Shown here piece by piece: positions 11,201 through 35,182 of a stretch of 64,000 bases of DNA. Below the pieces are notes generated by a model. It was not told the DNA's origin. It made no database searches and worked only from the letters and a program-made list of their open reading frames with translations. The position numbers and the translations under genes are program-made. The DNA comes from Bacillota bacterium. GTDB lineage: Bacteria; Bacillota; Clostridia; Acetivibrionales; DTU013. Within the stretch, counting starts at the first letter, position 1, and each line of letters starts with the position of its first letter. The DNA lies in NCBI GenBank assembly GCA_023435925.1, contig JAEZLF010000152.1, positions 5,589-69,588 of the forward strand. Reading direction: 5' to 3'.

Positions 11201-14200
11201 CTGACACATCGTACAAATCAGTTTAATCTGAGCACGATCAGAAGAAGTGAAGAAGAATTGACTCTTTTATTAGAGAATAAATCCTATACAGGCTTTGTCG
11301 TTGAAGCGTCTGATAGATTTGGGGATTATGGCATCATCGGACTTGTCCTTTTGTATGATGACCGGGAAAAGATCTTCATTGATACATTCCTGATGAGCTG
11401 CAGAATATTTGGCAGAAATGTGGAAAATGTTATGCTCGCAGGAATCGGAAGATTTGCCCGCGAGAGAAAACGAGAGAGGATAGAGGCCGCTTTTGTATCA
11501 ACGGAAAAAAATAAACCCACTTATGAATTTATTATTCTCAATAAGTGGGAACTTCTGATGGAAGCGGATAAGCGGCAGTTGTACTGCATAAAAACAGAAG
11601 AGCTGAAAAAGAAAGTAGAGGGTGTTGAGTTTTATTATAATAAGAAGTTTGCAGATGCTAATGCAGACGGATTATATAAAGGAAATGTGTGTTTGGAACA
11701 CAAGGCAGGAGAGACCGCAAAGACTCATAGCAGCAGCTTCCTGCCGCAATATGATCCGGATTACAATGTGGAATCATATGAGCATATACGTCACAAGGAA
11801 TATATCCTGCCACTCAAATATTTGACGGCAGAAAAACTACTGCAAATTTCTTACGGGTATTGTTCTGATGCGACTTTGTCCGGATTTAATACTACTGAAA
11901 ATGGGAAACAGGAAAAACTCCTGCACATTTGGAAAAGGTTATTAAAAACAGACAAGATTGAGATAGAGGATGATTTTTTTAAGCTTGGTGGTGACTCGTT
12001 GAGTGCTGTTATTCTCCTATCAAACATCAGGAAAGAATTTGGCGTAGAGCTGGCCTTAAAGGATGTTTTCAGATCGGGTACCATTAAAAAGCTTGCACAG
12101 ATTATTGCGGGGTCAAGCAGTAAAAAGGAGGAGCATATAGAACCCGTTGAACCCAAAGCGTATTATGATCTTTCTTCTGCACAGAAAAGAATGTATATAC
12201 TCAATAAGATGGAAGGTCATTCTACAGTATATAATGAATGTCATAGAATTCTCATTGAAGGGAAACTGGATAGAAACAAGTTGGAATCCGCTTTCCAACA
12301 ATTTGTAAACAGACATGAAATTATGAGAACCGGATTTGAGATGATTGAATCGGGACCGGTTCAAATTGTATATGACGATGTAGACTTTAAAATTCCATTT
12401 GCAAAAGTAAAGGAAGAAGACGTACTTAAGGTGACGGATGAATTCATCCAGCCCTTTGATTTACGCAAACCGCCATTAATAAGAGCATCGTTGCTGGAGG
12501 TTGCTAAGGAACGTCATATTCTTTTGTTAGATGTCCATCATATTATTATTGACGGAGCGTCTTTCGGTATATTGATTAAAGAAATTCAGGCTTTATACCG
12601 GGGCAGTGCATTGAGACCGTTGCGAATCCAATATAAGGACTTTGCAAATTGGCAAAATAAATACTTAGTGTCGAATGCAATAAAGAAGCAGGAAGAATAC
12701 TGGAAGCAACAATTTAGCGATGGAATACCGGTGCTGAATATGCCGACAGATCATCCAAGGCCCGCAGTACAAAGCTTTCATGGAAGATGGTACTATTTTA
12801 AACTGGACTCTATTCAAACGGACAGACTAAAAAGCATTTGCGGCATAACAAACACAACACTGTTTATGCTGCTTTATGCTGCTTTTAATGTTTTGTTGCA
12901 CCGATACTCCAGTCAGGAGGATATTGTTGTTGGAATTCCCGTATCCGGCAGAAATCATGAGGATGTAAAAAACATTGCAGGTATGTTTGTCAATACGCTG
13001 CCAATCAGAACGAGTCCTAAAAGTAACTGCAAATTCAGCGAGTATTTAGAGGCAGTAAAAGAAACGATATTAAAGGGACTGGAGAATCAGGATTATCAAT
13101 ATGAAAATTTGGTAGACAAACTCAGCGTACAGAGAGAGCTTAACAGAAATCCGCTGTTTGATATCCTGTTTTCGATGCAGAATACGGATATACCGGATAT
13201 TCAGCTGGATGGCCTTTCTATGAAGCAGTGTAAAGTTGATAGTCACAAATCGAAATTTGATTTATCCCTGCTGGCAGCAGAAAAAAACAATGAATTAGAA
13301 TTTGGATTGGAATATTGCACAGATCTTTTTGAAGAGTATTCTATATTACGACTAAAGGATCATTTTTTGAATATTTTGAAGGACGTGTCAGACAACCTCC
13401 AAAAACCAATATCCGAAATAGAAATATTAAGTGAAGAGGAAAAGAATAAAATCTTATATGAATTTAATAGTACACAGGCGGACTATCCCCGAGATAAGAC
13501 CATACATCAATTGTTTGAAGAACAGGCAGCAAAAACACCGGATGATATTGCTGTTGTATTTGAGAATAAGGAATTGACATACTCCAGGCTTAATACGAGA
13601 GCGAATCAACTTGCAGCATTACTCAGGGATAAAGGTGTAGAACCCGGTGTAATTGTCGGAATTATGGTGAATCGATCATTGGAATTGGTTGTCGGGATTC
13701 TTGCTATCCTAAAAGCAGGTGGAGCCTATCTACCTGTCGATCCCGGTTACCCGGAGGAACGGATCAGATATATGCTTGAGGACAGCGGTATGAAGCTGCT
13801 ACTGACCTCAACTGCTCTTAACAGGCAAGCTTCTTTTGATGATATGATCTATATAAATGAGTGTTTTTCCGGTTTTGATGATGGCGTTTCTTGTTTTAAC
13901 CTCACGAATTTGAATAAATCCAGTGATTTGCTTTATGTAGTATATACTTCTGGTTCTACAGGACAGCCTAAAGGCGTAATGCTCGAGCACAGGAACATGG
14001 CAAACTTAATACATTTTCAGTACACAAAGACAGGGATCAATTTTAAGGAAAGAACCATGCAATTTGCTTCAATGAGCTTTGATGTATGTTCGCAGGAAAT
14101 ATTTTCTGCGCTGCTTACTGGTGGCACATTGGCAATCCTGAGTGATCGGGACAAGAACCGGGTTAACAGTATGTGCGAATTTATTAGGGTACAAAATATT

Positions 14201-15229
14201 AGTGTCATGTTTTTGCCTACTGCATTTTTTAAGTTTTTGGCAAGTCAGAAGGATTATTTGGAGTTGATTCCTGAAAGTGTGAAGCATATTATTGTAGCTG
14301 GAGAAAAACTAACACTAAATGAATATGCCAAGGATTTTTTCAAAAATAGGAATATCAGCCTGCATAATCATTATGGTCCTGCCGAAACCCATGTGGTGAC
14401 AACATATTCTATGGACAAAAACACAATGCTGAAGGATATCCCTTATATAGGGAAGCCCATTTCAAACACACAAATATATATTCTGGATAGCTTGCATCAT
14501 GTACAGCCAATCGGTATTTATGGAGAAATCTATATTGCCGGTGACAACGTAGGCAGAGGATACGCGAATAAGACAGATCTGACAATGAGAAGGTTTAAAA
14601 CCATTGAGATGGGCAAAACAAAAATCAGATGTTATCAAACCGGAGACGTAGGTCGGTGGATACATGACGGTAACATAGAATTTCTCGGCAGGAATGACAA
14701 TCAGGTAAAGATAAGAGGTTACAGGGTTGAACTGGAGGAGGTAGAGAAATGCTTATTAAAGCATGCCGGAATACGGGAATGTGTTGTCATAACGAGAAAG
14801 TTTCCAAACGGAAATACTGATTTGGTGGCATATTTCACTTCGGATGAAGTAGTTGATATCGATTCATTGAAAAGCACCCTAAAAAAGCATTTGCCTATTT
14901 ATATGATTCCGAAGTATTATATGCAAGTAGAAAAAATACAGTTGACGAAGAATGGAAAGGTAAATAAGGACAATTTACCAAATCTGATAATGAGTCCTGC
15001 AAAGAATAATTACACTCCTCCTGCAAGTGAAAAAGAAAAGGAACTTCTCAAAGTTTGGCGGAGTGTACTGGGAATTGACGATCTGAGTATCGAACATAAC
15101 TTTTTTGAAAATGGCGGAGACTCGCTTTTGCTTATTAAGGTTTTATTAGAAGCAGAAAAAAAGGGATATGAAATAACAGTAAAAGATATGTACTTAAAAC
15201 CGAGTGTCAAAGAATTATGCAGATCATAA
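8294..15229 (+). CDS. non-ribosomal peptide synthetase-like megasynthase, C-(A remnant)-FkbH-like-T-C-A-T
   Basis: Motifs in order: HHLIADAWS (C1); SYILDKNLNLMPIGIAGDLFISG...YRTGYKARWYPDGD (A6-A8-like remnant); VLDCDNTLW (HAD-IIIC/FkbH-type); FFKLGGDSLS (T1); HHIIIDGASF (C2). The A domain shows LTYSRLN, YTSGSTGQPKG, NHYGPAET, GEIYIAGDNVGRGY, YQTGDVGRW and GRNDNQVKIRG. T2 is FFENGGDSLL. The start may instead be TTG 8303, behind GAGGTGA. Confidence 0.9.
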   Translation: MIALHNNIDFYPLTHPQKAVWFTEKLHPGTSIGNVAATLRMKGTIDFSVLEKAINLFIKNNDSMRLRIIEIDGEPKQYFSEYQYHTFETIDFSGMDINELYKWDSLQSKTPLELIDSDLFYFVLIKLSDNDNGFYVKCHHLIADAWSMNLLGSRIMHIYYAMKGESEIPELYTPSYTDFMMSEDQYMASNRYIKDQEYWDKIFESFPERTILKADPPEHTSIKARRKTMIAPKKLTARIYQYCYENKTSVFSLFVAALSMYINRVTDKNDIILGTTTLNRLNTKEKETVGMFNNIVPIRIDMNDNMNFRTLIENVSREGLKLLRHQKYPYDYILKSVREKHQITDNIFNIVLIYQNTKLDMDHIKEEFSSRWHFNGYQVDSLHISINDRENEGNLIIDYDYQTDLFHAKEIDFIHQNIINVLWHALDDPAKTVSRLEMLSEKEKCRILREFNKTKIICPDGLETDSSEEYHKAMLRKIPAQTKSYILDKNLNLMPIGIAGDLFISGKSISNDRRKELVFLDGAGLPNPYSDGDRLYRTGYKARWYPDGDILYLGSVVPGNSLKSERIYNKSEIVVDILSTFTAEPVESYIKWWGRQFGYHLKINFAGYNQIFQELLNPESLLSKNNDGINVILIRFEDFIRYENGSDEEKISILEKTQEELKDAFGSFESKASTVVGIFPLAPYLDMSIVLQQKIEKISMDFKRALEKHKNVFILDFCEMQAIYGIHEVFDSLQDKEAHMPFTEEYYAAMGTELARKVCAIRKQTLKVIVLDCDNTLWKGICGEQGALGVHITEPYRQLQQFMLQKYQEGFLLAVCSKNNEKDVLEVFEKNPGMILEKKHFISWKINWKEKSINIKEIAEDLNLGLDSFIFVDDNPLECSKMAESCPEVLTLQLPYVNEYIPLFLKHVWAFDKVRITNEDILRNEMYEAEAKRKTLQNANSTFKQFMHSLHLKVSMRVITDDEIERAAQLTHRTNQFNLSTIRRSEEELTLLLENKSYTGFVVEASDRFGDYGIIGLVLLYDDREKIFIDTFLMSCRIFGRNVENVMLAGIGRFARERKRERIEAAFVSTEKNKPTYEFIILNKWELLMEADKRQLYCIKTEELKKKVEGVEFYYNKKFADANADGLYKGNVCLEHKAGETAKTHSSSFLPQYDPDYNVESYEHIRHKEYILPLKYLTAEKLLQISYGYCSDATLSGFNTTENGKQEKLLHIWKRLLKTDKIEIEDDFFKLGGDSLSAVILLSNIRKEFGVELALKDVFRSGTIKKLAQIIAGSSSKKEEHIEPVEPKAYYDLSSAQKRMYILNKMEGHSTVYNECHRILIEGKLDRNKLESAFQQFVNRHEIMRTGFEMIESGPVQIVYDDVDFKIPFAKVKEEDVLKVTDEFIQPFDLRKPPLIRASLLEVAKERHILLLDVHHIIIDGASFGILIKEIQALYRGSALRPLRIQYKDFANWQNKYLVSNAIKKQEEYWKQQFSDGIPVLNMPTDHPRPAVQSFHGRWYYFKLDSIQTDRLKSICGITNTTLFMLLYAAFNVLLHRYSSQEDIVVGIPVSGRNHEDVKNIAGMFVNTLPIRTSPKSNCKFSEYLEAVKETILKGLENQDYQYENLVDKLSVQRELNRNPLFDILFSMQNTDIPDIQLDGLSMKQCKVDSHKSKFDLSLLAAEKNNELEFGLEYCTDLFEEYSILRLKDHFLNILKDVSDNLQKPISEIEILSEEEKNKILYEFNSTQADYPRDKTIHQLFEEQAAKTPDDIAVVFENKELTYSRLNTRANQLAALLRDKGVEPGVIVGIMVNRSLELVVGILAILKAGGAYLPVDPGYPEERIRYMLEDSGMKLLLTSTALNRQASFDDMIYINECFSGFDDGVSCFNLTNLNKSSDLLYVVYTSGSTGQPKGVMLEHRNMANLIHFQYTKTGINFKERTMQFASMSFDVCSQEIFSALLTGGTLAILSDRDKNRVNSMCEFIRVQNISVMFLPTAFFKFLASQKDYLELIPESVKHIIVAGEKLTLNEYAKDFFKNRNISLHNHYGPAETHVVTTYSMDKNTMLKDIPYIGKPISNTQIYILDSLHHVQPIGIYGEIYIAGDNVGRGYANKTDLTMRRFKTIEMGKTKIRCYQTGDVGRWIHDGNIEFLGRNDNQVKIRGYRVELEEVEKCLLKHAGIRECVVITRKFPNGNTDLVAYFTSDEVVDIDSLKSTLKKHLPIYMIPKYYMQVEKIQLTKNGKVNKDNLPNLIMSPAKNNYTPPASEKEKELLKVWRSVLGIDDLSIEHNFFENGGDSLLLIKVLLEAEKKGYEITVKDMYLKPSVKELCRS

Positions 15230-15247: not shown

Positions 15248-17161
15248 ATGACGAATAAAGTATATCTGATTCTGGTTTGTATTACTACCGTTTTACTTGC
15301 TTTACTGGAAGTTTACCTAAATAAAAGTGTGAAAAGTAAAAAAACGATACATGCTTTTTTTGAATATGCAATTCTAAGCATTGGCATTACAAACATTGGC
15401 TATATTTTGATGCTCACGCTGGAGATTTTTTTTCAGTATTATAATACGATTTCTTTTGTATATATCATATTTTTAGGCGCATCTTTTTTTCCTGTGTTTT
15501 TTCTTTTGTTTGGATTGGCTTTTGCAAAACGGGATTTTTCTTTTGAGAGAAAGTATTTGTTTTTATTTGTTATACCGGTGCTAACAAACATTGTTTTATG
15601 GACGAACAGCAGCCATAATCTTTTTTATAAAGAGTACCTTACAAGCTCGGAATACATATATGGACCGTATTTCCTGGTACACATTTTATGGCTATATGGG
15701 TGCGTATTGATTGGGATTGGTAAGCTCTTGTCCTTCTCTATAAAGAATGCAGGTTTCTTTTCCAAGCAGGCTTTGCTTATTATCGCAGGTACTGTACTAC
15801 CTCTCGTTCTTGATGTCGTGTGGATAATGGGAAGCTTTCTTGATATTGAATATTTGAAAATGTTTTCCCAATATGATATTACCCCGATAACTTTTACTTT
15901 TGCAATTATCTGTTATGCACTTGCAATTTTTAAGTTTGATTTTTTAAATGTCGTTCCAATTGCTCTGCAGAGAATAGTGGATATCATATCCGACGGTTTT
16001 ATTGTGATTGATGAAGATTTCAATATTATTGATTATAACGAAACATTTTTAAGTAATTTCAGTAAAATAGCGGATTTTAAGAGGAAAGATAATATCATTG
16101 ATGTATTGGTGGAAAACAATGTACCAGGCATAGATTCAGCGTTGCTCGCCGGTTACTTAAGAAAAGCAGTGGGAAATAAAGAATCTGTGCTGTTTGAAAA
16201 GCAAATAGTATCCAGTGATTTCAATAAATATTTCACAGTTGAAATAACCCCTATTTTTTCTGAAGATAAGAAGAGCTATAATAAGGAAAAGCTTGTAGAG
16301 CGCAAAGGAAAATCCAGTTTGATTGGCATTATCATCCTGCTTAAAGATATTACAGAGCATAAGATGAATCTGAAGGCATTAAAGGAAAACCAGGAAATCC
16401 TCCTCGAACAGGAGCGTCTTGCGTCGCTGGGGCAATTGATCGGTGGAATTGCACATAATCTGAAGACGCCGATCATGTCGATATCCGGAGGTATAGAGGC
16501 ACTTAGGGATCTGACATTCGAATACAGAGATTCAATTGATGATAAAAGTGTTACCGAACAGGATCACAAGGAAATCGCCAGAGAAATGATGTCCTGGTTG
16601 GACAGGATGAAGCCCTATTGCGGGTATATGTCGGATGTGATATCGGCAGTTAAGGGACAAGCTGTTCAGATGAATGCATCTGTAACAAGCAAATTTACAG
16701 TAGATGAACTCATCAAAAGGGTAGATCTGTTGATGAAACATGAACTGAAGAAATACCACTGTATTTTAAAGACTGAAATGAATATTGATAAGAGTACCGA
16801 AATCAAAGGGGAGATTACCAATCTGGTACAGGTTTTCGATAACATCATCATCAATGCCATGCAAGCATACGAAGGCGAAAATGGGTCAATTGACTTGAAA
16901 ATTACACGTAGTGGTGATAATGTTGAATTTATATTTAAAGATCAAGGGAAGGGTATTCCAAAGCAAATTGCGGATAGATTGTTTAAGGAAATGGTTACTA
17001 CGAAAGGCAAAAAAGGTACAGGACTGGGTTTATACATGTCATATTCCACCATTAAAGGCCGATTTGGCGGGAACATGTCTTTTGTATCGAAGGAAGGACA
17101 TGGAACTACCTTTTTTATATCCATACCGTGTATAGCATACAACAGACAGGAGGCAGAATAG
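15248..17161 (+). CDS. sensor histidine kinase with N-terminal polytopic (7TM-type) domain and PAS-like region
   Basis: About 7 hydrophobic helices in the first 240 aa. H-box LGQLIGGIAHNLKTPI. HATPase_c motifs (NLVQVFDNIIINAMQA, DQGKGIP, GTGLGLYMS). AGGAG RBS 18 nt after the NRPS stop. Confidence 0.85.
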   Translation: MTNKVYLILVCITTVLLALLEVYLNKSVKSKKTIHAFFEYAILSIGITNIGYILMLTLEIFFQYYNTISFVYIIFLGASFFPVFFLLFGLAFAKRDFSFERKYLFLFVIPVLTNIVLWTNSSHNLFYKEYLTSSEYIYGPYFLVHILWLYGCVLIGIGKLLSFSIKNAGFFSKQALLIIAGTVLPLVLDVVWIMGSFLDIEYLKMFSQYDITPITFTFAIICYALAIFKFDFLNVVPIALQRIVDIISDGFIVIDEDFNIIDYNETFLSNFSKIADFKRKDNIIDVLVENNVPGIDSALLAGYLRKAVGNKESVLFEKQIVSSDFNKYFTVEITPIFSEDKKSYNKEKLVERKGKSSLIGIIILLKDITEHKMNLKALKENQEILLEQERLASLGQLIGGIAHNLKTPIMSISGGIEALRDLTFEYRDSIDDKSVTEQDHKEIAREMMSWLDRMKPYCGYMSDVISAVKGQAVQMNASVTSKFTVDELIKRVDLLMKHELKKYHCILKTEMNIDKSTEIKGEITNLVQVFDNIIINAMQAYEGENGSIDLKITRSGDNVEFIFKDQGKGIPKQIADRLFKEMVTTKGKKGTGLGLYMSYSTIKGRFGGNMSFVSKEGHGTTFFISIPCIAYNRQEAE

Positions 17162-18670
17162 ATGCGGAGAAAAGCACAAGCAACCAGGTCAAACTACAGA
17201 ATCCTTGTCGTGGACGACGAGATAGGCATTATTGACTCTCTGTCCGTTGTTTTGAAGCGGAGCGGTTATGACTTTACCGGATTGGTGGATCCGCTGGAGG
17301 CTATTGAAAGAGTAAAGACGGAACATTTTGATTTGATGATTCTGGATTTTCTGATGTATCCTATTCATGGCGACAAGGTGGTGCAGACAATCCGGGAGTT
17401 TAATAGTGAATTGTACATTTTACTGCTAACAGGACATAAGGATCTGGCACCGCCTCTTGAAACTATCAAGGCTCTGGATATTCAGGGTTATTGCGAAAAG
17501 AGTGACCGATTTGACCAGCTGTTATTACTTGTAGAATCGGGAATCAAATCCATCTCGCAGATGCGGACTATCAAGAAATTCAGAGACGGTCTTAACAAAA
17601 TACTAGAAGCTGTGCCGAAGATTTATTCGCTCCAGCCTATCGATTCCATATTGCAGGATATACTGTCAGAAATCATGCCTTTGGTGGATAGTGAGAACGC
17701 GTTTATTTTAGTTGATGATACTACGGATATTATTGCCGGTAACAAAAGTATATTTAAAGGTATTGGTAAGTATAAGGCGGAGATTGACTGTTTTATGGAG
17801 ATGCTGAGCCCGAATCTCATGGAACACATCGGATATTCAAGGATATCCCGGCAGGTGGTTAAGCTGGAACAGAGTGTGATATTACCGTTGATCAACGAAT
17901 TTCATCAGACCATTGGCGTTATATTTGTTGAAAGTACAAATATTGAGGATGGCCTGAAGCTGTTGGAGATCTACTCGAATCAGGCGGCATCTTCAATTAA
18001 CAATGCCTTTCTTCATTCACTGGTCAATATGAAAAATGATGAACTCAATAAAACATATGACCTGCTCAAACTTAGATATATGGATACAATTGAAGCATTA
18101 AGGCAGGCCGTTGATGCAAAGGATATTTATACCAGAGGCCATTCTGACCGCGTTGCCTATTATGCCGTCAGAATCGGTGAAGCTGCAGGAATGACAGCAC
18201 ACGAGCTTGAAACTCTCCGAATCAGCGGTGTCTTTCATGATATCGGGAAGATTGGAACAGCGGACGACATTTTACTGAAAACCGACAGGCTTGACGACAG
18301 GGAGCTATTGGAGATACAAAAGCATCCAATTAAGGGAGCTCGAATTTTATCGGCGGTCTCCATGTTTAAGGATGTGGTTCCAATAGTGAAATGTCACCAT
18401 GAAAGAGTGGATGGAACGGGTTACCCGGATGGTTTAAAAAAAGATGAAATACCATTGTCGGCAAGAATTATATCAGTGTCCGATGCATTTGATGCCATGA
18501 TGTCCGACCGGCTTTACCGATCGAAGCTAAATCTTGAAGAAGCGAGGCAGCAGTTGATTAACGGCTCAGGCACACAATTCGATGAGGACATTGTCTCGAT
18601 ATTCATAAAGCTCATCGATGGCACAGGCTTTGGCGAAATGCTGAAGGAAACTGCTGCCACATATGAGTAA
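17162..18670 (+). CDS. response regulator with HD-GYP (c-di-GMP phosphodiesterase-type) output domain
   Basis: REC domain (ILVVDDE, DLMILDFLM), a central GAF-like spacer, and HD-GYP motifs HSDRVAYY, FHDIGKIG, HHERVDGTGYPDGL. The ATG directly abuts the kinase stop codon. Confidence 0.85.
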   Translation: MRRKAQATRSNYRILVVDDEIGIIDSLSVVLKRSGYDFTGLVDPLEAIERVKTEHFDLMILDFLMYPIHGDKVVQTIREFNSELYILLLTGHKDLAPPLETIKALDIQGYCEKSDRFDQLLLLVESGIKSISQMRTIKKFRDGLNKILEAVPKIYSLQPIDSILQDILSEIMPLVDSENAFILVDDTTDIIAGNKSIFKGIGKYKAEIDCFMEMLSPNLMEHIGYSRISRQVVKLEQSVILPLINEFHQTIGVIFVESTNIEDGLKLLEIYSNQAASSINNAFLHSLVNMKNDELNKTYDLLKLRYMDTIEALRQAVDAKDIYTRGHSDRVAYYAVRIGEAAGMTAHELETLRISGVFHDIGKIGTADDILLKTDRLDDRELLEIQKHPIKGARILSAVSMFKDVVPIVKCHHERVDGTGYPDGLKKDEIPLSARIISVSDAFDAMMSDRLYRSKLNLEEARQQLINGSGTQFDEDIVSIFIKLIDGTGFGEMLKETAATYE

Positions 18671-25899: not shown

Positions 25900-25928
25900 T
25901 TGTAAATAATGGAAGTGCATGTTATAAT
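25900..25928 (+). promoter_or_regulatory. sigma-A-type promoter candidate (extended -10) for the hyd-like operon
   Basis: TTGTAA, 17 nt, (TGT)TATAAT. Confidence 0.45.
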
Positions 25929-25946: not shown

Positions 25947-25964
25947 TAGTTAATAAATTAACAA
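25947..25964 (+). promoter_or_regulatory. Rex-type operator candidate
   Basis: TAGTTAATAAATTAACAA matches the clostridial Rex consensus TTGTTAA-N4-TTAACAA at 13 of its 14 specified positions (N4 unconstrained). It lies just downstream of the -10 box. Confidence 0.5.
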
Positions 25965-26207
25965 AAATAACGATCGATTTAAATCTTTATATTCCACTTC
26001 TTTGAACGGCTTTCGAACAGCATCATGTTGTACCGCACAGATTGCAGCATGGTTTTACACCGATTGTTTTCCGAAAAATTAACTTTAGCAAAAATCAACT
26101 TTCGAGAAGAATCAACATTTACAAGGAATTGTTAAAAAAACACCAATGTAAGCATTTGTATGGCGATATTCCCAATTCGATTCATGTTATCTGCGAGGAG
26201 GGTTTTT

Positions 26208-26741
26208 ATGGGTGTTCAGACGAAAGCATGCGCGTGCAGAAAAGAGACAGACCAGGAAAAGCTTGCAAGAATTGCTGCAGTCATCGAGGACTACAGAGAC
26301 AAAGAGGGCAGTCTGATACAAATATTACACATGGCACAGGGCATTTATGGATATCTGCCTCTCCAGGTCCAGCAATTCATTGCAGAAAAGCTTGAGAAAC
26401 CACTGTCTGAGGTCAGCGGCGTAGTTACCTTCTACTCTTTTTTCTCAACGCAGCCAAAAGGTGAAAATACCATACGGGTCTGTCTGGGTACAGCCTGCTA
26501 TGTAAGGGGCGGAAAGAAGATCATTGACAAGCTGAAGGAGATACTGGATGTAGACGTAGGAGGCACAACCAGGGACGGAAAGTTTTCATTGGAAGTCATG
26601 CGGTGTATCGGGGCTTGTGGGCTGGCACCGGCTATGACGATCAACGACAGGGTTTATAAACAGGTCAATCCTGATAAGCTCAGAAGCATTCTCAATACCT
26701 ATGGGGGAGGTGGAAAGCATGCCGCTGAAAACAAAAATTGA
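26208..26741 (+). CDS. NuoE/HydC-like [2Fe-2S] subunit
   Basis: VCLGTACYVRGG...RCIGACGLAP thioredoxin-like 2Fe-2S motif. ATG 26208 lies behind GAGGAGGG. Confidence 0.85.
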   Translation: MGVQTKACACRKETDQEKLARIAAVIEDYRDKEGSLIQILHMAQGIYGYLPLQVQQFIAEKLEKPLSEVSGVVTFYSFFSTQPKGENTIRVCLGTACYVRGGKKIIDKLKEILDVDVGGTTRDGKFSLEVMRCIGACGLAPAMTINDRVYKQVNPDKLRSILNTYGGGGKHAAENKN

Positions 26742-29700
26742 TCAAACGGATGACCTCTTTAAGATAAAAGAGTGCTATGATGAAAACCTGAAAAACATAG
26801 ATTTTGAAATACTGGTTTGCTCCGGTGCCGGGTGCATTTCTTCCAATTGCCAGGAGGTAAAGGATGCATTGATCAAATGCCTGGAAGAAAGGCTGCTGAC
26901 AGAAAAGGTAATTGTGGCTGAAACCGGTTGTATCGGTACTTGTGACCTGGGACCAGTGATGATCATTCATACTTTAAAGGAGTTTGGAGATCTATTGCGG
27001 GGAAAAGGTGTTATCTATACAAAGCTGACACCGCAGGACATCCCGTCTATCGTGGAAGCACATCTGGTCAATGGCAGTATCATATCAGATAAAACCTATT
27101 TTGATCCGAGGAAGAATGTGAACGTGCCATATATTGAGGATATTGACTACTTTAAAAATCAGGTGAAAATAGCGCTGAGAAACTGTGGTACTATTGATTT
27201 TGCTTCCATGGAGCAGTACATTGCAAAGGATGGGTATATGGCCATTGCAAAAGTATTGAAGGAGTATACACCACAGCAGGTAGTTGACGAGGTGAAAAAG
27301 GCAGGTTTGAAAGGGAGAGGCGGTGCAGGCTTTCCCACCGGAGTGAAGCTGGAATCAGGTATGAAAGCTCCAGGACCGGTAAAATATCTGGTTTGTAATG
27401 CGGATGAGGGTGATCCCGGGGCTTTTATGGACAGAAGTATTCTTGAAGGCGACCCCCACAGCATCATTGAAGGGATGCTGATCAGCGGTTATGCGATTGG
27501 TGCTGCGAATGGTTATGTTTATGTCCGTGCAGAATATCCGCTGGCTGTGGAAAGACTTGATCTGGCAATCCAAAAGGCAAGGAAGGCCGGACTCCTCGGC
27601 GATCATATACTGGGTACAGGCTTCTCATTCGATCTGGAGATCCGAATTGGGGCAGGTGCTTTTGTCTGCGGAGAAGAAACCGCGCTGATGGCATCGATTG
27701 AGGGGGAACGCGGAGAACCTCGTCAAAAGCCTCCATTTCCGTTCCAGCGGGGCCTATTTGGAAAGCCGACGATTATCAGCAATGTAGAGACCTATGCAAA
27801 CATTCCACCGATCATTCTGAAAGGCAGCAGCTGGTTTTCCCGTTTTGGAACAGAAAACAGCAAAGGAACAAAGGTTTTTGCTCTGGCCGGTGCTATCAAT
27901 AATACAGGAATTGTGGAAGTACCTATGGGCACAACACTGGGGGAAATTGTTTTTAATATCGGTGGAGGCATACGAAAAAATAAGGAGTTTAAAGCCGCTC
28001 AGACCGGTGGACCTTCCGGAGGCTGCATCACCAGAGACCACTTAAATACGCCGATGGACTATGATTCTCTTGTGAAGCTCGGCGCGATTATGGGCTCCGG
28101 TGGCTTGATTACCATGGATGAGGACACCTGTATGGTGGATATGGCACGATTTTTTATGGAATTCATACAGGAGGAATCCTGTGGAAAGTGTGTACCTTGC
28201 AGGCTGGGCACGAAACGGATGTTGGAAATCCTTGAAAGAATCACGAAAGGACAGGGCGAAGAAGGAGATATTGAAACGCTGGAGGAGCTTGGCGAAATGA
28301 TTAAGGAAGCTGCCGTATGCGGACTTGGTCAAACTGCGCCGAATCCTGTGCTTAGCATGATTCATAATTTCAGAGAAGAGTACGAGGAGCATATTAAATA
28401 CAAGTACTGCAGAGCCGGGGTATGTGCTGATCTGTTTATTTCACCTTGCCAGAACGCCTGTCCGGCGGGTGTTAATGTTCCCGGTTATGTCTCGCTGGTA
28501 GCTGCTGGGAGATTGAGAGATGCGTATAATCTTATCAGAAAGGAAAATCCTTTTCCTGCTGTGTGCGGCAGGGTATGCACCCATGAGTGTGAAAGCAAAT
28601 GCAGAAGAGGCCAGTTGGACGAACCAGTTGCCATAGCCGACCTGAAACGGTATGTAGCGGACTATGTGCTGAAAAATGAAATGCCTTATCTGGATCTGGT
28701 ATTTCCAAAGAAGGGAAAGAGTGTCGCAATTATCGGTGCCGGACCATCCGGACTGACCTGCGGATATTATCTGGCAAGACTTGGCTATGAGGTGGATGTT
28801 TATGAATCTCAGCCTATAGCAGGCGGTGTTTTAGCCTTTGGAATTCCTGAATACCGGTTGCCTAACGAAGTACTGCAGCATGAAATCAGAATGATTGAAC
28901 AGGTTGGCGTCAAGATCCATCTTAATACCGAAATAGGCTCCGATATCACCTTCTACCAACTGAAGAGCAGCCATGATGCGCTTTATATAGCAACGGGGAC
29001 ACAATTTTCCAATCAGATCCGTATTCCTGGAGAGGATTTGAAAGGAGTATATCACGGACTGGATTTTCTCAGAGACGTCAATCTGAAGCACGATGTAAAA
29101 ATCGGAGGCTCCGTAGCGGTCATCGGAGGCGGTAATACGGCAATTGACGCTGCAAGAACAGCATTAAGGCTTGGGGCAAAAGAAGTTACAGTTCTTTACA
29201 GACGGTGCATGGAGGATATGCCTGCTGACAGCAGAGAGATAAGGGACGCAGAGGAAGAAGGCATCCGAATAATTCCTCTGGTGGCGCCGTTAAGCTTTAT
29301 TGGAAAGGACAGAGTCAGGGAAATCGAATGTGTCCGAATGGAACTGAAGGACTTTGATAATAGCGGGCGCAGAAAACCAAAGCCTATACCGGGATCGGAG
29401 TTTCAACTGAAGGTGGATCTGGTGATCCCGGCTGTCAGTCAGTATTCCGATCTTCCGTTTATTAACAGGGATGAGGTAGAGGTTACTCAGTGGGGAACAT
29501 TTGTCACAGACCGGGATACGTTGATGACAAAGATGAGAGGTGTATTTGCAGGCGGGGATGTTGTACGGGGCTCGGACACGGTCATTAAGGCTATTGCCGA
29601 CGGTAAAAATGCGGCAAAGGCCATCGACAAGTATCTTGGAGGCAAAGGCGTTCTGAATACCGGCGAAGATATTGATATTCCTGTGGCAGTGGATGAAAAA

Positions 29701-29847
29701 GAAATACTGGAGCATGAGAGATTTCCGATGAAATTCCTTCCTCCGCAAGAGCGCCGCTACAGCTTTGATGAGGTAGCTGTGGGCTTCCACAAGCTCAATG
29801 CCATTGCAGAAGCCATGAGATGTCTCAGATGCGACAGGAGGTGCTGA
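26719..29847 (+). CDS. NuoF/HydB-like flavoprotein fused to a GltD/NfnB-like NADPH-FAD module (1042 aa)
   Basis: GRGGAGFPTG (FMN/NADH site) and ESCGKCVPCR mark the NuoF part. From about 28396 the GltD-like part shows CGRVCTHECESKC, VAIIGAGPSGLTCGYYLA, VAVIGGGNTAIDAART and GVFAGGDVV. Confidence 0.85.
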   Translation: MPLKTKIDQTDDLFKIKECYDENLKNIDFEILVCSGAGCISSNCQEVKDALIKCLEERLLTEKVIVAETGCIGTCDLGPVMIIHTLKEFGDLLRGKGVIYTKLTPQDIPSIVEAHLVNGSIISDKTYFDPRKNVNVPYIEDIDYFKNQVKIALRNCGTIDFASMEQYIAKDGYMAIAKVLKEYTPQQVVDEVKKAGLKGRGGAGFPTGVKLESGMKAPGPVKYLVCNADEGDPGAFMDRSILEGDPHSIIEGMLISGYAIGAANGYVYVRAEYPLAVERLDLAIQKARKAGLLGDHILGTGFSFDLEIRIGAGAFVCGEETALMASIEGERGEPRQKPPFPFQRGLFGKPTIISNVETYANIPPIILKGSSWFSRFGTENSKGTKVFALAGAINNTGIVEVPMGTTLGEIVFNIGGGIRKNKEFKAAQTGGPSGGCITRDHLNTPMDYDSLVKLGAIMGSGGLITMDEDTCMVDMARFFMEFIQEESCGKCVPCRLGTKRMLEILERITKGQGEEGDIETLEELGEMIKEAAVCGLGQTAPNPVLSMIHNFREEYEEHIKYKYCRAGVCADLFISPCQNACPAGVNVPGYVSLVAAGRLRDAYNLIRKENPFPAVCGRVCTHECESKCRRGQLDEPVAIADLKRYVADYVLKNEMPYLDLVFPKKGKSVAIIGAGPSGLTCGYYLARLGYEVDVYESQPIAGGVLAFGIPEYRLPNEVLQHEIRMIEQVGVKIHLNTEIGSDITFYQLKSSHDALYIATGTQFSNQIRIPGEDLKGVYHGLDFLRDVNLKHDVKIGGSVAVIGGGNTAIDAARTALRLGAKEVTVLYRRCMEDMPADSREIRDAEEEGIRIIPLVAPLSFIGKDRVREIECVRMELKDFDNSGRRKPKPIPGSEFQLKVDLVIPAVSQYSDLPFINRDEVEVTQWGTFVTDRDTLMTKMRGVFAGGDVVRGSDTVIKAIADGKNAAKAIDKYLGGKGVLNTGEDIDIPVAVDEKEILEHERFPMKFLPPQERRYSFDEVAVGFHKLNAIAEAMRCLRCDRRC

Positions 29848-29849
29848 GA

Positions 29850-31637
29850 ATGATTAATCTGATCATAAACAATAAAGAAGTTTCGGCCCGGGAGGGCGAT
29901 ACGATACTGGAGGCAGCAAAGAGAAATAACATTGTGATTCCGCATTTCTGCTATATGGAAGGTGTACATCAGGCGGGTTCCTGCAGGATCTGTGTGGTTG
30001 AGGTAGAGGGGGCAAAAACACTTCAGGCCTCTTGCCTGGTACAGGTTCGCGAGGGAATGGTTGTCCGGACCAATACGCAGAAGGTGAAAAAAACCAGAAA
30101 GCTTCTATATGAGCTGATGCTGTCGGATCATCCGAAGGATTGCCTGAGCTGCGGAAGGAATCAGAGCTGTGAATTTCAGAAGCTGGGAGAAATGATGGGG
30201 ATTCAGGAGCAGCGATTTGAAGGAGAAAAATCGAAATCATATCTGGATGACCAATCCCCGTCTATTGTAAGAGATACCTCTAAATGTATTTTGTGCAGGC
30301 GATGTGTTGCGGTATGTAATCAAATACAGGGGGTCGGTGTGCTGAATGTTCAGCACAGAGGTTTTAAGACGGTGATCGGGCCTGCCGCAGAGCTTCCGTT
30401 GAATCAGGTGAACTGTACTTATTGCGGTCAATGTACAACGGTTTGTCCGGTGGGTTCATTACAGGAAAAGGACTCCACAAAAGCGGTGTGGGATGCGCTC
30501 TATAACACTGGTAAGAGGGTGGTGATTCAGACGGCCCCTGCAGTGCGAGCCGCTCTGGGAGAGGAATTTGGCTATGAGCCCGGCACACTGGTTACGGGAA
30601 AAATGGCAGCGGCATTGAAGGAACTAGGTTTTGACGATGTATTTGACACGAATTTTGCTGCCGATCTTACCATCATAGAGGAGGGAAGTGAGCTCCTTTC
30701 CAGAATAAACGATGCTTTCTCCGGAAAAGGGACAGTACTTCCCATGATTACGAGCTGCAGCCCCGGCTGGATCAAATATGTGGAGCATACGTGGCCAGAC
30801 GAGCTGGATCACCTATCCAGCTGCAAATCGCCCCATATGATGTTGGGAGCTCTTGTCAAAAGCTATTACGCGGATAAGCTGGGCATTGATCCTCAAAAAC
30901 TGTTTGTTGTATCTGTAATGCCCTGTACTGCTAAAAAGTATGAGATTACGCGGCAGGAAATGAGGAACAACGGGTTGGCTGACGTTGATGCGGTGCTGAC
31001 AACAAGAGAGCTGGCGCATATGATAAAGGAATCGGGAATTGATTTTTGTTCTCTGGAAGATAAGGAATTTGATCATCCGCTTGGATTGTCCACCGGAGCG
31101 GCTGATATTTTCGGTACTACCGGCGGTGTAATGGAAGCGGCTTTGCGAACGGTTTATGAGCTGATCACAGGTCGGGAACTGCCTTTTGATAAGCTGCATG
31201 TTGAGCCGATCGCAGGGCTGGAGAGAATAAAAACAGCGCAGCTTCTGATTCAGGATCCTTTACCCGATTACAAATTCCTTGACGGGGTTATATTAAAAAT
31301 TGCAGTCACCAGTGGATTAAACGGAGCCGCAGAACTGATGAAGGAAGTATCCGCGGGCACATCGCCTTATCACTTTATTGAAGTAATGGGATGCCCGGGC
31401 GGTTGTATCAGCGGTGGCGGGCAGCCAAGAACGACGACAAACGAGGTCAGATTGAAGCGGTTGGAAGCAATATACAGAGAGGATGAAGGGAAGACGCTGA
31501 GGAAATCCCATGAGAACCCGGCTGTCACCCGTCTGTACGAGGAATTTCTGATGAAACCTCTTGGTCACAAATCCCATGAACTGCTTCATACCCATTACAG
31601 GAAAAGGGGAATATTTAATCAATATGATAATGAATAA
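29850..31637 (+). CDS. [FeFe]-hydrogenase HydA-like protein (M3-type) with variant L1 motif
   Basis: N-terminal 2Fe-2S, HPKDCLSCGRNQSCE and 2x CxxCxxCxxxCP motifs. H-domain motifs: TSCSPGW (L1 variant), MPCTAKKYE (L2), EVMGCPGGCISGGGQP (L3). ATG lies behind AGGAGG. Confidence 0.85.
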   Translation: MINLIINNKEVSAREGDTILEAAKRNNIVIPHFCYMEGVHQAGSCRICVVEVEGAKTLQASCLVQVREGMVVRTNTQKVKKTRKLLYELMLSDHPKDCLSCGRNQSCEFQKLGEMMGIQEQRFEGEKSKSYLDDQSPSIVRDTSKCILCRRCVAVCNQIQGVGVLNVQHRGFKTVIGPAAELPLNQVNCTYCGQCTTVCPVGSLQEKDSTKAVWDALYNTGKRVVIQTAPAVRAALGEEFGYEPGTLVTGKMAAALKELGFDDVFDTNFAADLTIIEEGSELLSRINDAFSGKGTVLPMITSCSPGWIKYVEHTWPDELDHLSSCKSPHMMLGALVKSYYADKLGIDPQKLFVVSVMPCTAKKYEITRQEMRNNGLADVDAVLTTRELAHMIKESGIDFCSLEDKEFDHPLGLSTGAADIFGTTGGVMEAALRTVYELITGRELPFDKLHVEPIAGLERIKTAQLLIQDPLPDYKFLDGVILKIAVTSGLNGAAELMKEVSAGTSPYHFIEVMGCPGGCISGGGQPRTTTNEVRLKRLEAIYREDEGKTLRKSHENPAVTRLYEEFLMKPLGHKSHELLHTHYRKRGIFNQYDNE

Positions 31638-31962
31638 GCTGCTACAGTTCGTCTAAAAAAGGGGAAGAAGAGTATACCTCACATATTGGAAACGAACTGG
31701 AAACCTTATGGTTATGGCTTTCAGTTCGTTTCCGGGAGATGTGTATATAAAATCCAGTAGCTATTGACCATATCTATTACCGCATTCTCCCATTGGAGGA
31801 TGTTTTCAAGGTCCGGTAAGCTTCATGTGAAATAGAAGGGCGAAAGCAATAGTTGAAGATTTATGCGGAACATCCAACCATGCTTATTGATATTTGTCGG
31901 AACTTTTGATAATATGCTCGTAGACATTGCGGATGAGAGCTGTTCTTGAGGATAATGAGAAA

Positions 31963-33774
31963 ATGGGCGTGTTTAAAAAGTTATCTATAAAAATCCAATT
32001 ATTTCTACTGATATCATGCATCATTATTGTGGTACTATTTGTAATTTATTTTATTTACAACAGGACTTCCGGAATCGTTACCAATACAAATAAGGATTAT
32101 ACCAACAAGATCATTTACCAGATTAAAAACAACATATCCTCCAACTGTAATGTAATCAATAGAATATCCTACAGTGTAGTATACAACAAGGTTGTACAGC
32201 AATACATGCTGGAAAGCGACGCTGCAACTAAGTACAGTCTATATGATAAGCTGATCAACTTTTTAAGCAATATGATAGAGATTAAGGATGGAATCATTGA
32301 TATTGCCTTTATTTCAGAAGAGGGCAACAGCTTTGATATGAATGGATTTTCCGATATTTGTGGGGAAATTGGCGACATACCGTTTATGGATAACAAAACA
32401 CCGTATTACACCGGTTTAATGTCCTATGAAGAAGGTGGCAGGATTGAAAACTGCATCATTGCATGTTCAAATGTGGTTTCGGTTGAGAAAGGCAGGCAAT
32501 ATGGACAAAAAATCGGTACTGTATACATTGTCCTGGACCCAAATGCAATTATCAGTGAAGACTATGATAAGGAGAATGATGTCGGGAGCTATATCTACCT
32601 TATGGATCGGAACCGGAATATATTGTTTAACGGAAGAAATGCGGCTCTGGAAGCAGAACTGGTAAACATGGACTATCACCAGCAAATACAAATGAATATT
32701 CTGGAAGGTAAGCTGGGGAAAACGGACAACCTGATTCAGCTTCAGGAAATAGAACAACTGGAAGGCTGGATTGTATGCATCACACCAATGCAGGTCCTTT
32801 TAAAAGAGGTCGACATCATTAAAAAGCTGGGAATCACTGTGCTGCTGCTGGCATTAACGTTGATAGCCATACCTTTCAGGATCATTGGAAATAACATTAT
32901 CCGCCCCATGAAAAAGTTCATCGCTTTTATGACAGAAGTAAAAGAGGGAAATTTGAAAAATCTGAAAAAGAGAATTCATCTTGAAGGTTATGCGGAAATA
33001 AACGCTGTCGCGCAGGAGTTTAATTCAATGCTTGATGAAATAGACTCCCTGACTCGCAGGCTGGTTGAAACAAACAGTATGCTATATAAAGCGGAGCTTG
33101 AAAACAAACAGTCGGAGCTGGCGTTTTTAAGGAGCCAGATCAATCCTCATTTCCTATATAATACCTTTGAATCTTTTAAAGGTATGGCATCGGCAAAGGG
33201 TGTACCTGAAATAAAGCAAATGCTCACGTCACTGAGCAATATCTTTAAATACAGCGTTAGAAGCGCGTCGATGGTTTCATTAGGGGAGGAAATTGAAATT
33301 GTCAAGTCCTATATCAGCATTCAGCAAATTCGCTTTTGCGACCGATTTGATGTTTTCTATGAGCTTGAGGAGGACGTATTGGATTATAAAATTCCTAAAA
33401 TGATACTTCAGCCGATTGTTGAAAACTCTGTTTTCCACGGCCTTGAACCAAAGCTTGAGAAGGGGCATTTATGGATAGGGGGAAGGAAGACGGTAGAGGA
33501 TGAACTTATTGTATGGGTCAGAGATGATGGAATAGGACTCGCAAGTGGCAGCTTGAGAAACCTTTCAGATAAGCTGAACGACAATAGTGAGAAAACCGGG
33601 GAACAAGAAAATTCTAATTATAGCGTTGGACTGAAAAATGTAAGCAACCGTATAAAATTAATGTATGGCAAAGAGTATGGAATTGAAATAACCAGCATAC
33701 AAGGGGAATATACTCAGGTATTGGTTAGAATCCCCATAGGAGGGAACAGCGATTTACAAAGTATACATTGTTGA
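31963..33774 (+). CDS. sensor histidine kinase, YesM/LytS-type (HAMP + His_kinase + HATPase)
   Basis: Two TM segments flank an extracellular domain. FLRSQINPHFLYNT H-box. MILQPIVENSVFHG and VRDDGIGL motifs. Confidence 0.8.
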   Translation: MGVFKKLSIKIQLFLLISCIIIVVLFVIYFIYNRTSGIVTNTNKDYTNKIIYQIKNNISSNCNVINRISYSVVYNKVVQQYMLESDAATKYSLYDKLINFLSNMIEIKDGIIDIAFISEEGNSFDMNGFSDICGEIGDIPFMDNKTPYYTGLMSYEEGGRIENCIIACSNVVSVEKGRQYGQKIGTVYIVLDPNAIISEDYDKENDVGSYIYLMDRNRNILFNGRNAALEAELVNMDYHQQIQMNILEGKLGKTDNLIQLQEIEQLEGWIVCITPMQVLLKEVDIIKKLGITVLLLALTLIAIPFRIIGNNIIRPMKKFIAFMTEVKEGNLKNLKKRIHLEGYAEINAVAQEFNSMLDEIDSLTRRLVETNSMLYKAELENKQSELAFLRSQINPHFLYNTFESFKGMASAKGVPEIKQMLTSLSNIFKYSVRSASMVSLGEEIEIVKSYISIQQIRFCDRFDVFYELEEDVLDYKIPKMILQPIVENSVFHGLEPKLEKGHLWIGGRKTVEDELIVWVRDDGIGLASGSLRNLSDKLNDNSEKTGEQENSNYSVGLKNVSNRIKLMYGKEYGIEITSIQGEYTQVLVRIPIGGNSDLQSIHC

Positions 33775-35182
33775 TGATGAGAGCTGGATTGTTGAAGGTC
33801 TAAAATCAGATATCAATTGGCAGGAATATGGTTATTATGTCATAGGTCAATCTTACAATGGGTTTGATGCTTTTGATAAAATTATTGATAACAGGCCGGA
33901 TCTGGTATTTACCGACATCAGAATGCCGGGAATGAACGGGCTGGAGCTTATTGAAAAATGCAGCCATATTTTGCCTTATACTGCATTTATCGTGATGAGC
34001 GGATATGCCGAGTTTTCCTATGCCAAGGAAGCGATGCAATATGGTGCTATGGGATATTGCCTGAAACCCCTTGACGAAGATGAAATAACAGGCTTGCTCA
34101 AGAAAACCAAAACCTTTCTTGAAAAGAACCGGGCATCTGCCGGGGATGATTTACTTTTGCACATAGGAAGCTGGAGCACAATGTCGGAGGAGAGAGTATC
34201 GAGTATACTCGAAGCAAGAGGATTGTTTTTAGGAAAAAAGGAACCGGTAATACCTATTGTTTCCATTGGACCTGAAAAGCTTGTTTTTCCCAGCTCTATC
34301 AGTGTAATAGGCTTAAATTTGGGCCTGGACGAAAACGGATATTTAATTCAACAAAGCGAAGAAACGGATAGGGATATTGTCGAACACCTGAAAATGGCCG
34401 TCAGTGAAAGTATGCCGGGTATAGGCATAGGCAACGGTATCAGGTCAGCGGGTGATATAAGAGTGTGTATGGAGTCGGCTATTCTGGGAGCATATCAGTT
34501 TTTTGCCGTAGGAAGACCCGGCGTATACAAGGCAGAGGAAATCTCAGACAGCAGTATTCGAAGTATCCTGACGTTGCTTGAAGAAAAGATAACAGCGAAG
34601 GACATGGTTGAAACTGACAGAATAATGAATGAAATTACAGATGAATTCAGGGCAGGTAAATATAATATAAAGCATGCCTTTATCATATATAATACAATTA
34701 TGTCGGTATTATACAAAGGTGCTTCCGAGCAATATGAGGACTTTGTGTTTGCTTCCGAAGAGCTGGTTAAAATGTTCGGCAATGCCTTTAATATGCTGGC
34801 AAGTTTGAAAAAATCAATACTTGGAGATATTAACACCCTCCGTAACTATTTGCCGTCGGATATAAAAAATGATTATTTCAAAGAGATTGTGAAATACATA
34901 GATGAAAACTTTTACAAGGATATATCCATACAAACCGTATCACAAAGGTTTAGCATTAATCTGAACTATTTATGCCAGCTTTTTAAAAAAGAAATGGATA
35001 CCACCTTTACAAATTATCTAAGAAGGCTCAGAATATCCTACGCATGTAAGCTACTGAAAGAGACTGATTTAAGCGTAAGCATAATCAGCGAAAGAGCCGG
35101 CTTTGGCGATTATTTCTATTTCAGCCGTATTTTCAAAAAATATACCGGTACAACTCCCAGCTTATATAGACAAGCCCAATAA
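33752..35182 (+). CDS. response regulator, REC + AraC-type HTH (YesN-like), probable ATT start
   Basis: The REC N-terminus YKVYIVDDESWIVEGL...DLVFTDIRMPGMNG lies upstream of the first ATG (33923). The only plausible initiator after the in-frame TAG (33737) is ATT 33752, 7 nt after AGGAGGG. C-terminal AraC HTH (GFGDYFYFSRIFKKYTG). Confidence 0.75.
   Translation: MYKVYIVDDESWIVEGLKSDINWQEYGYYVIGQSYNGFDAFDKIIDNRPDLVFTDIRMPGMNGLELIEKCSHILPYTAFIVMSGYAEFSYAKEAMQYGAMGYCLKPLDEDEITGLLKKTKTFLEKNRASAGDDLLLHIGSWSTMSEERVSSILEARGLFLGKKEPVIPIVSIGPEKLVFPSSISVIGLNLGLDENGYLIQQSEETDRDIVEHLKMAVSESMPGIGIGNGIRSAGDIRVCMESAILGAYQFFAVGRPGVYKAEEISDSSIRSILTLLEEKITAKDMVETDRIMNEITDEFRAGKYNIKHAFIIYNTIMSVLYKGASEQYEDFVFASEELVKMFGNAFNMLASLKKSILGDINTLRNYLPSDIKNDYFKEIVKYIDENFYKDISIQTVSQRFSINLNYLCQLFKKEMDTTFTNYLRRLRISYACKLLKETDLSVSIISERAGFGDYFYFSRIFKKYTGTTPSLYRQAQ

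Follow-up and report, generated by a model that had tools for sequence, protein, structure and literature searches.

Serine at the [4Fe-4S] ligand position of the H-cluster L1 motif in a conserved clade of HydA subunits encoded with a HydB::GltD fusion

The operon and the L1 motif of HydA

The window analyzed here is a 64,000-nt stretch of a Bacillota genome (Clostridia, Acetivibrionales, DTU013; contig JAEZLF010000152.1, positions 5,589 to 69,588). It carries an operon of three genes, hydC, hydB::gltD and hydA, the last of which encodes the catalytic subunit of an [FeFe]-hydrogenase. The L1 motif of the H-cluster in this subunit reads TSCSPGW and does not follow the canonical pattern TSCCPxW: the Cys in the proton-relay position is kept, while the Cys in the ligand position is replaced by Ser. 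As shown below, this Ser is an ordinary trait of the lineage, not a lesion or an error. The genes and motifs are the following.

26208 to 26741, plus strand: hydC, NuoE-like [2Fe-2S] subunit (Pfam PF01257, E 3.5e-50)
26719 to 28440, plus strand: NuoF-like part of hydB (Pfam PF01512, PF10589, PF01257; PDB matches)
28441 to 29847, plus strand: fused GltD/NfnB-like part of hydB (Pfam PF14691 (Fer4_20), PF07992; PDB matches)
29850 to 31637, plus strand: hydA, catalytic subunit of [FeFe]-hydrogenase, 595 amino acids (Pfam, NCBIfam and PDB matches)
30750 to 30770, plus strand: H-cluster motif L1, TSCSPGW (DNA and translation; conservation in orthologues)
30918 to 30944, plus strand: H-cluster motif L2, MPCTAKKYE (equivalents of CpI M353, C355, K358 and E361, intact)
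31380 to 31427, plus strand: H-cluster motif L3, EVMGCPGGCISGGGQP (equivalents of CpI M497, C499 and C503, intact)

The likely start codons are ATG at 26208 for hydC, with GAGGAGGG upstream (the mechanical open reading frame, ORF, begins at 26160), ATG at 26719 for hydB (mechanical ORF from 26701; the gene ends at 29847 and encodes 1042-1048 amino acids), and ATG at 29850 for hydA, with AGGAGG located 9 nt upstream (mechanical ORF from 29820).

The domain order in HydA is an N-terminal [2Fe-2S] domain (Fer2_4), a NuoG-type [4Fe-4S] domain, a 2x[4Fe-4S] domain, the H-domain and a small-subunit-like C-terminus. The corresponding Pfam matches are PF13510, PF10588, PF12838, PF02906 (Fe_hyd_lg_C, E 6.4e-93, with the profile matched over its full length) and PF02256 (Fe_hyd_SSU, E 1.1e-25). 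The protein scores 881.6 bits with the NCBIfam model NF040763 (FeFe_hydrog_A6, "NADH-dependent [FeFe] hydrogenase, group A6"; curated cutoff 765) and 508 bits with TIGR02512 (cutoff 406). It is 100% identical to the database protein P0001, also of 595 amino acids, and its best match among solved structures is HydA1 from Acetobacterium woodii (7q4v_A, E 1.3e-185).

HydC matches the NCBIfam HoxE/NuoE models, with scores below their curated cut-offs. HydB consists of two parts. The NuoF-like part comprises an N-terminal thioredoxin-like [2Fe-2S] domain, a site for flavin mononucleotide (FMN) and NAD(H), and the NuoF [4Fe-4S] cluster; residues 36-581 match HydB subunits of bifurcating hydrogenases (7t2r_B, E 6e-219; 7q4v_B from A. 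woodii, E 7e-213). The GltD/NfnB-like part contains 2x[4Fe-4S] and a Rossmann module for flavin adenine dinucleotide (FAD) and NAD(P)H, and residues 581-1045 best match GltD-like NADPH/FAD modules (9bov_A, E 9e-130; 9n5u_A (NfnA), E 1e-123; StnC from Sporomusa ovata, 8oh5_C, E 7e-109). Homology to A. woodii HydB stops at residue 544 of 599 in the latter, and the GltD module follows directly; thus, the GltD module stands where canonical HydB subunits have their C-terminal 2x[4Fe-4S] ferredoxin-type domain. As in electron-bifurcating HydABC, a NuoE-like HydC and a NuoF-like HydB are encoded beside HydA, but HydB lacks the C-terminal 2x[4Fe-4S] ferredoxin-type domain (B3/B4) characteristic of FeFe-Bfu enzymes, which is the proposed ferredoxin site and is conserved in all Bfu enzymes (PMC9304861).

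In the frame of the ORF 29820 to 31637, nucleotides 30750-30770 are ACG AGC TGC AGC CCC GGC TGG, translated as T-S-C-S-P-G-W. The Cys (TGC, 30756-30758) falls in the proton-relay position, equivalent to CpI C299, and the Ser (AGC, 30759-30761) in the position of a ligand of the [4Fe-4S]H subcluster, equivalent to CpI C300, A. woodii S301 and C299 of Thermoanaerobacter kivui. The motifs aligned with it are FTSCCPGW in CpI (C299/C300), FTSCCPSW in T. kivui HydA1 (C298/C299) and ITSCSPGW in A. woodii HydA1 (C300/S301). HMMER alignments with these three proteins contain no indels within or beside the motif, the nearest gap being approximately 8-10 residues upstream, and hence the Ser occupies the ligand position. 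An earlier note on this stretch, made from the sequence alone, had reported the same motif, the AGC codon at 30759-30761 and intact L2 and L3, and had taken the substituted residue for the cluster ligand (CpI C300); the DNA and the reading frame agree with it exactly, both other motifs are complete, and the alignments place the residue in the same position. Strict TSCCP is not necessary for assignment to HydA, since A. woodii HydA1, a proven hydrogenase, deviates from it identically.

The rest of the active site is preserved. L2 and L3 follow the patterns MPCxxKxxE and ExMxCxxGCxxGGGxP, so that the three other Cys ligands, including the bridging one, are present. Equivalents of the CpI proton-path residues (E279, E282, R286, S319 and C299), as well as those of K358, M353, M497, C355, C499 and C503, are kept both in the window and in all 26 sampled members of its clade.

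Conservation of the serine among orthologues and related hydrogenases

A variant in one residue has to be judged by its conservation, not against chance. All 120 nearest database homologues (75-100% identity) carry SCSPGW, with L2 and L3 intact. The genome survey, with one genome taken per GTDB species, yielded 80 loci encoding proteins 65-84% identical to HydA of the window, the closest one (84%) from a metagenome-assembled genome (MAG) of an uncultured Bacillota bacterium. The surveyed taxa are Bacillota, Bacteroidota (Prolixibacteraceae), Spirochaetota, Synergistota, Sumerlaeota and Thermoanaerobaculia. The motif could be read by simple translation in 78 loci, and in each of these it is xTSCSPGW; in the two others this translation ended before the motifs, although for one of them the motif was readable from the DNA. 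The Ser is thus universal among the examined orthologues of a phylogenetically broad clade.

The Ser codon itself could be read from DNA in 79 loci. It is AGC in 43 of them, AGT in 26, TCG in five, TCC in three and TCT in two (69 AGY and 10 TCN codons), and the codon of the relay Cys next to it remains TGC or TGT. As a switch between AGY and TCN needs two nucleotide changes, the Ser has been held by selection across switches of the codon family.

These data bear on the suggestion of the earlier note that the Ser could result from a sequencing or assembly error or from a recent strain-specific Cys-to-Ser mutation. AGC does differ from TGC by a single nucleotide, but the identical protein P0001 was deposited independently, Ser is found in all 120 homologues and 78 orthologues, and five different codons encode it across the 79 loci. 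The note had named orthologues with canonical TSCCP as the sign of such a lesion, while none of the 198 examined proteins has it, all of them carrying SCSP, encoded by codons of both Ser families. The probability of an error or a recent mutation is therefore negligible, and the AGC codon reflects a real substitution that is under selection and extends over the whole lineage.

The hydC / hydB::gltD / hydA gene order is preserved in essentially all of the 80 loci with enough upstream DNA, operons of this type are conserved in no fewer than six phyla, and all examined members of the clade are Ser-type. The clearest exception in synteny is the locus L009 (6169-9713, Peptococcaceae MAG), where HydB has 589 amino acids and no GltD match, which may reflect a true difference or a fault of the assembly. 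HydA from this locus is also Ser-type, being 76% identical to that of the window.

Moreover, in 9-11 loci a second trimeric operon is located just downstream, encoding NuoE of 164 amino acids, a short NuoF of approximately 395 amino acids, which is too short for the terminal domains, and HydA of approximately 596 amino acids. Such operons were found in L030, L041, L043, L047 and L051 (approximately 1.8 kb downstream of hydA), and in L003, L005, L067 and L019. Seven of the eight second-copy HydAs bearing the motif are Ser-type, mostly PMATSCSPGW, and only the copy from L019 is canonical. A tie between the Ser and the GltD fusion is ruled out by these seven copies with short NuoF, and by A. woodii, where the Ser occurs with a canonical HydB. 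The Ser is therefore not specific to the GltD-linked complex. Having been found with three types of HydB partners, it is a feature shared by a large branch of multimeric HydAs.

On a broader scale, we considered representatives of clusters formed at 50% identity from 1.84 billion proteins. Among the best 150 of these representatives, L1 is xSCCP in 94 and xSCSP in 25; thus, roughly one in five of the related representatives is Ser-type, and the share of Ser forms is highest among the nearest ones. Motif screens demanding strict TSCCP would wrongly flag about one fifth of the relatives as degenerate. The top-scoring representative, P0121 (4122 amino acids), contains seven H-domain-like repeats in tandem; L2 and L3 are present in every repeat, and L1 is not recognisable in any.

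A rough neighbour-joining tree of H-domains, built on BLOSUM distances and only indicative, contains a pure Ser clade of 29 proteins, formed by the window protein, all sampled orthologues and two representatives, and an adjacent, separate Ser clade of five that includes A. woodii HydA1. The node joining these two clades comprises 41 Ser, 11 Cys and one other, and over the entire tree the Ser/Cys state requires 19 parsimony changes, so that TSCSP is not strictly monophyletic in it. Hence, of the possibility raised by the earlier note that TSCSP defines a clade, the enrichment in the part of the tree around the window and A. woodii proteins stands, while strict monophyly does not. As an indication only, the Ser state marks a large region of the radiation of NuoE/NuoF-associated HydAs without being strictly monophyletic.

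The L3 sequence of the window clade is EVMGCPGGC; in 24 of the 26 sampled members, Gly occupies the position of CpI A498, next to the ligand C499. Most HydAs, including that of A. woodii, have Ala here, and Gly is absent among the top residues in the 103 Cys-type representatives. In a mutual-information scan this column was the best correlate of the Ser state and the only one to reach even a modest level. Another candidate for compensation, the Cys in the LSSCKSP loop shared by the window protein and A. woodii HydA1 (LSSAKSP in CpI), was rejected, as it is present in 19 of 24 Ser-type and also in 55 of 103 Cys-type representatives.

Probable ligand role of the serine and type of the complex

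A natural precedent for Ser ligation is available. According to Katsyv et al. 2023 (PMC10021017), Ser301 is a ligand of the H-cluster [4Fe-4S] in electron-bifurcating HydABC from A. woodii, and this enzyme has a normal infrared signature (Fourier-transform infrared spectroscopy) and normal activity. HydA of the window contains the same decapeptide PMITSCSPGW as A. woodii HydA1 (7Q4V/7Q4W/8A5E) and shares with it the domain order, L2 and L3, the LSSCKSP loop, and NuoE/NuoF-type partner subunits. The differences are the Gly in the CpI A498 position, found in most of the window clade in place of Ala, and, in the partner subunit, the approximately 465-residue GltD/NfnB-like FAD/NADP(H) module, while the 599-residue HydB of A. 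woodii ends in the 2x[4Fe-4S] ferredoxin-type domain. With canonical group A enzymes (CpI, HydAs from T. kivui and Thermotoga maritima) the window protein shares the fold, the domains of the accessory clusters, L2, L3, the proton pathway and the relay Cys; those enzymes, unlike it, have L1 of the TSCCPxW type and an all-Cys [4Fe-4S]H.

The second precedent is an engineered one. In CrHydA1 the variant C170S, equivalent to CpI C300S, keeps the [4Fe-4S] cluster and accepts the [2Fe] subcluster; it is the most active of the ligand variants, with a bias towards H2 evolution, and its authors note that the position, located in a flexible loop, tolerates exchange well (Kertess et al. 2017, PMC5855289). 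The substitution and the ligand position are the same as in HydA of the window, but C170S is an artificial single mutant of a minimal algal enzyme, while the natural Ser enzymes evolved with the substitution. The only match of a literature search on "TSCSP" was a 2013 Melainabacteria paper, which mentions a TSCSPGW hydrogenase variant in passing.

As the two L1 residues are adjacent and C170 of CrHydA1 is in a flexible loop, one could imagine a swapped register, in which the lone L1 Cys ligates [4Fe-4S]H and the Ser serves as the proton relay, making the protein effectively of the C299S rather than the C300S type. The absence of indels within and beside the motif in the alignments with CpI and T. 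kivui HydA1 makes this very unlikely. Cys-to-Ser variants of the relay residue in CpI and CrHydA1 are severely impaired, unlike A. woodii HydABC with its normal activity and infrared states. Moreover, the structure paper assigns the ligand role to Ser301 itself (PMC10021017).

Considering the intact remainder of the active site and these precedents, we regard HydA of the window as likely to be a functional [FeFe]-hydrogenase with a Ser-ligated [4Fe-4S]H subcluster, as published for A. woodii HydA1. The Ser-ligated H-cluster listed among the possibilities in the earlier note thus corresponds to a natural state that has already been described. In such an enzyme, [4Fe-4S]H would be held by three Cys residues (the L2 Cys and two L3 Cys, one of them bridging to [2Fe]) and by the hydroxyl of the L1 Ser, while the L1 Cys before it would still pass protons to the [2Fe] subsite as the terminal relay. 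Ligation by the Ser oxygen probably fine-tunes the potential of [4Fe-4S]H or the catalytic bias. HydA would work in a three-subunit, pyridine-nucleotide-linked complex of HydC, HydB::GltD and HydA, equipped with an FAD/NADP(H) site besides that for FMN and NAD(H); expression of the complex is probably controlled by Rex in response to NADH/NAD+.

Several observations weigh against this reading. Ser ligation in A. woodii comes from a cryo-electron-microscopy model of moderate resolution, as its authors report (PMC10021017). C170S of CrHydA1 is less active than the wild type and matures slowly (PMC5855289), and therefore high activity of a natural Ser enzyme must depend on the context; at the same time, the mutual-information scan for a compensating column found nothing strongly co-varying with the Ser. 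The role of the glutamate-synthase-linked group A2 is given as undetermined in HydDB, and a 2026 preprint still describes this group as functionally uncharacterised. The HydB::GltD-linked clade, the window protein included, is known from sequences alone. Finally, genes for the maturases HydE, HydF and HydG were found neither in the 64-kb window nor as conserved neighbours in the 80 loci. Maturase genes are often unlinked to hydrogenase genes.

The same lack of maturase genes at these loci and the uncharacterised state of the glutamate-synthase-linked class would also suit a protein that is not a hydrogenase. The HydA-like subunit could then be a mere Fe-S conduit in an Stn/Nfn-like NADH:NADPH transhydrogenase, with the Ser marking a degenerate site that binds at most a plain [4Fe-4S] cluster, and the similarity of the GltD-like module on HydB to NADPH modules of Stn/Nfn-Bfu (9bov_A, 9n5u_A, 8oh5_C) points in this direction. 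Still, we consider such a function improbable. All residues of the [2Fe] subsite and of the proton path are kept in the window protein and in every orthologue sampled, over several phyla, which is unexpected for a mere conduit; the same L1 sequence is found in the fully active A. woodii HydA1; and the window protein passes the curated cutoff of the NCBI hydrogenase model.

Genuine Stn/Nfn-Bfu enzymes, for their part, lack any H-domain. S. ovata StnABC and Nfn-Bfu (8OH5, 9BOV, 9N5U) resemble the window operon in having a NuoE-like and NuoF-like core, and a closely related GltD-like NADPH/FAD module with two [4Fe-4S] clusters. However, their GltD module resides in the NuoG-like subunit together with an inactive FdhF-like domain and without an H-cluster, and StnB keeps the C-terminal ferredoxin domain. 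In the window operon, it is the NuoF-like subunit that carries the GltD module, where the ferredoxin domain would otherwise be, and the H-domain of the NuoG-like subunit is complete. As S. ovata StnC consists of GltD and NuoG/FdhF-like parts with no H-domain, the window operon does not belong to Stn; the non-hydrogenase, Stn-like role proposed in the earlier note does not agree with an H-domain that is complete and conserved across phyla.

Placement of the window operon among the HydDB groups depends on the rule used. Group A2 is defined in HydDB as "glutamate synthase-linked (putative)". By the 2016 rule, a hydrogenase is assigned to A2 only if a neighbour has a GltD/GltA domain and not NuoF, while in the 2026 preprint any glutamate-synthase domain nearby suffices. 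HydB of the window holds NuoF and GltD domains in one protein, and so falls outside A2 by the former rule and within it by the latter. In terms of domain content, the operon can be described as a conserved A2/A3-hybrid type, straddling HydDB groups A2 and A3. The genetic link of the hydrogenase to a GltD domain is shared with group A2 and with the trimeric hydrogenase of Vallitalea guaymasensis L81 (peg.3894-3896), the architecture of which was described from annotation alone, with a second NAD(P)H site being suggested. The L1 Ser is discussed neither in HydDB nor in the 2026 preprint. HydB with a GltA domain has been noted in archaeal hybrid hydrogenases. In the literature on the HydC / HydB::GltD / HydA operon type, no biochemical characterisation was found.

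By itself, the Cys-to-Ser substitution in L1 opens no new question, as an active enzyme with a natural Ser ligand has already been described and Ser is known to be tolerated in this position. HydA of the window belongs to a known Ser-ligated kind, within a different, uncharacterised type of complex, and the more interesting question concerns the partner, a HydB conserved across phyla in which an NADPH/FAD module takes the place of the ferredoxin-type domain.

A tentative and rather doubtful answer is that the HydC / HydB::GltD / HydA clade represents ferredoxin-independent hydrogenases, in which the FMN bifurcation site would link H2 with NAD(H) as well as with NADP(H), with the Ser selected for this reaction. 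The NADP(H)/FAD module may have supplanted the domain at which ferredoxin docks on bifurcating HydB. Such a complex could produce H2 by confurcation of NADH and NADPH at low H2 pressure, or it could produce NADPH driven by H2, and the Ser ligand may have been selected to shift the potential of [4Fe-4S]H or the catalytic bias. If this is true, the Bfu/HydABC family would gain a new type of reaction, and a part of the uncharacterised group A2 would be given a function.

Upstream region and genomic surroundings

Two candidate regulatory elements were identified upstream of hydC.

25900 to 25928, plus strand: best sigma-70-like promoter upstream of hydC, TTGTAA-17-TATAAT with extended -10 TG (consensus match only)
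25947 to 25964, plus strand: Rex-like operator TAGTTAATAAATTAACAA, a near-perfect 18-bp palindrome with one mismatch to TTGTTAANNNNTTAACAA

The sequence TTGTTAANNNNTTAACAA is what we take to be the clostridial Rex consensus. The Rex-like site lies just downstream of the promoter, and it occurs identically in L001 and L002. Among 64 orthologous loci, 17 Rex-like sites (at most two mismatches, within 400 nt upstream of hydC) were found in 15 loci, compared with 0.78 +/- 0.85 sites and a maximum of four in composition-matched shuffles; the 20-bp form of the Rex site, TTGTGAAN6TTCACAA, gave no match above chance. This enrichment supports NADH/NAD+-responsive control, and the predicted site is consistent with a redox-balancing hydrogenase.

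The genes directly downstream of hydA, at 31927-35182, encode a sensor kinase (dCache/His_kinase) and a response regulator of the AraC type; next come genes for permeases of sugar ABC transporters and for a rhamnosidase of family GH106. The kinase and regulator are probably part of a separate carbohydrate-utilisation unit and not regulators of the hydrogenase.

At 8294-15229 the window contains an ORF of 2311 amino acids similar to nonribosomal peptide synthetases, with two condensation domains, an AMP-binding adenylation domain and two PP-binding domains. The next gene encodes a histidine kinase of the seven-transmembrane (7TM) type (15248-17161), and after it comes one for a response regulator that contains DUF3369 and an HD domain of the HD-GYP type (17162-18670). 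The other genes of the window are ordinary chromosomal ones, including those for DnaE, MutS2, TypA, a penicillin-binding protein, tyrosyl- and methionyl-tRNA synthetases, sugar transport proteins and GH106.

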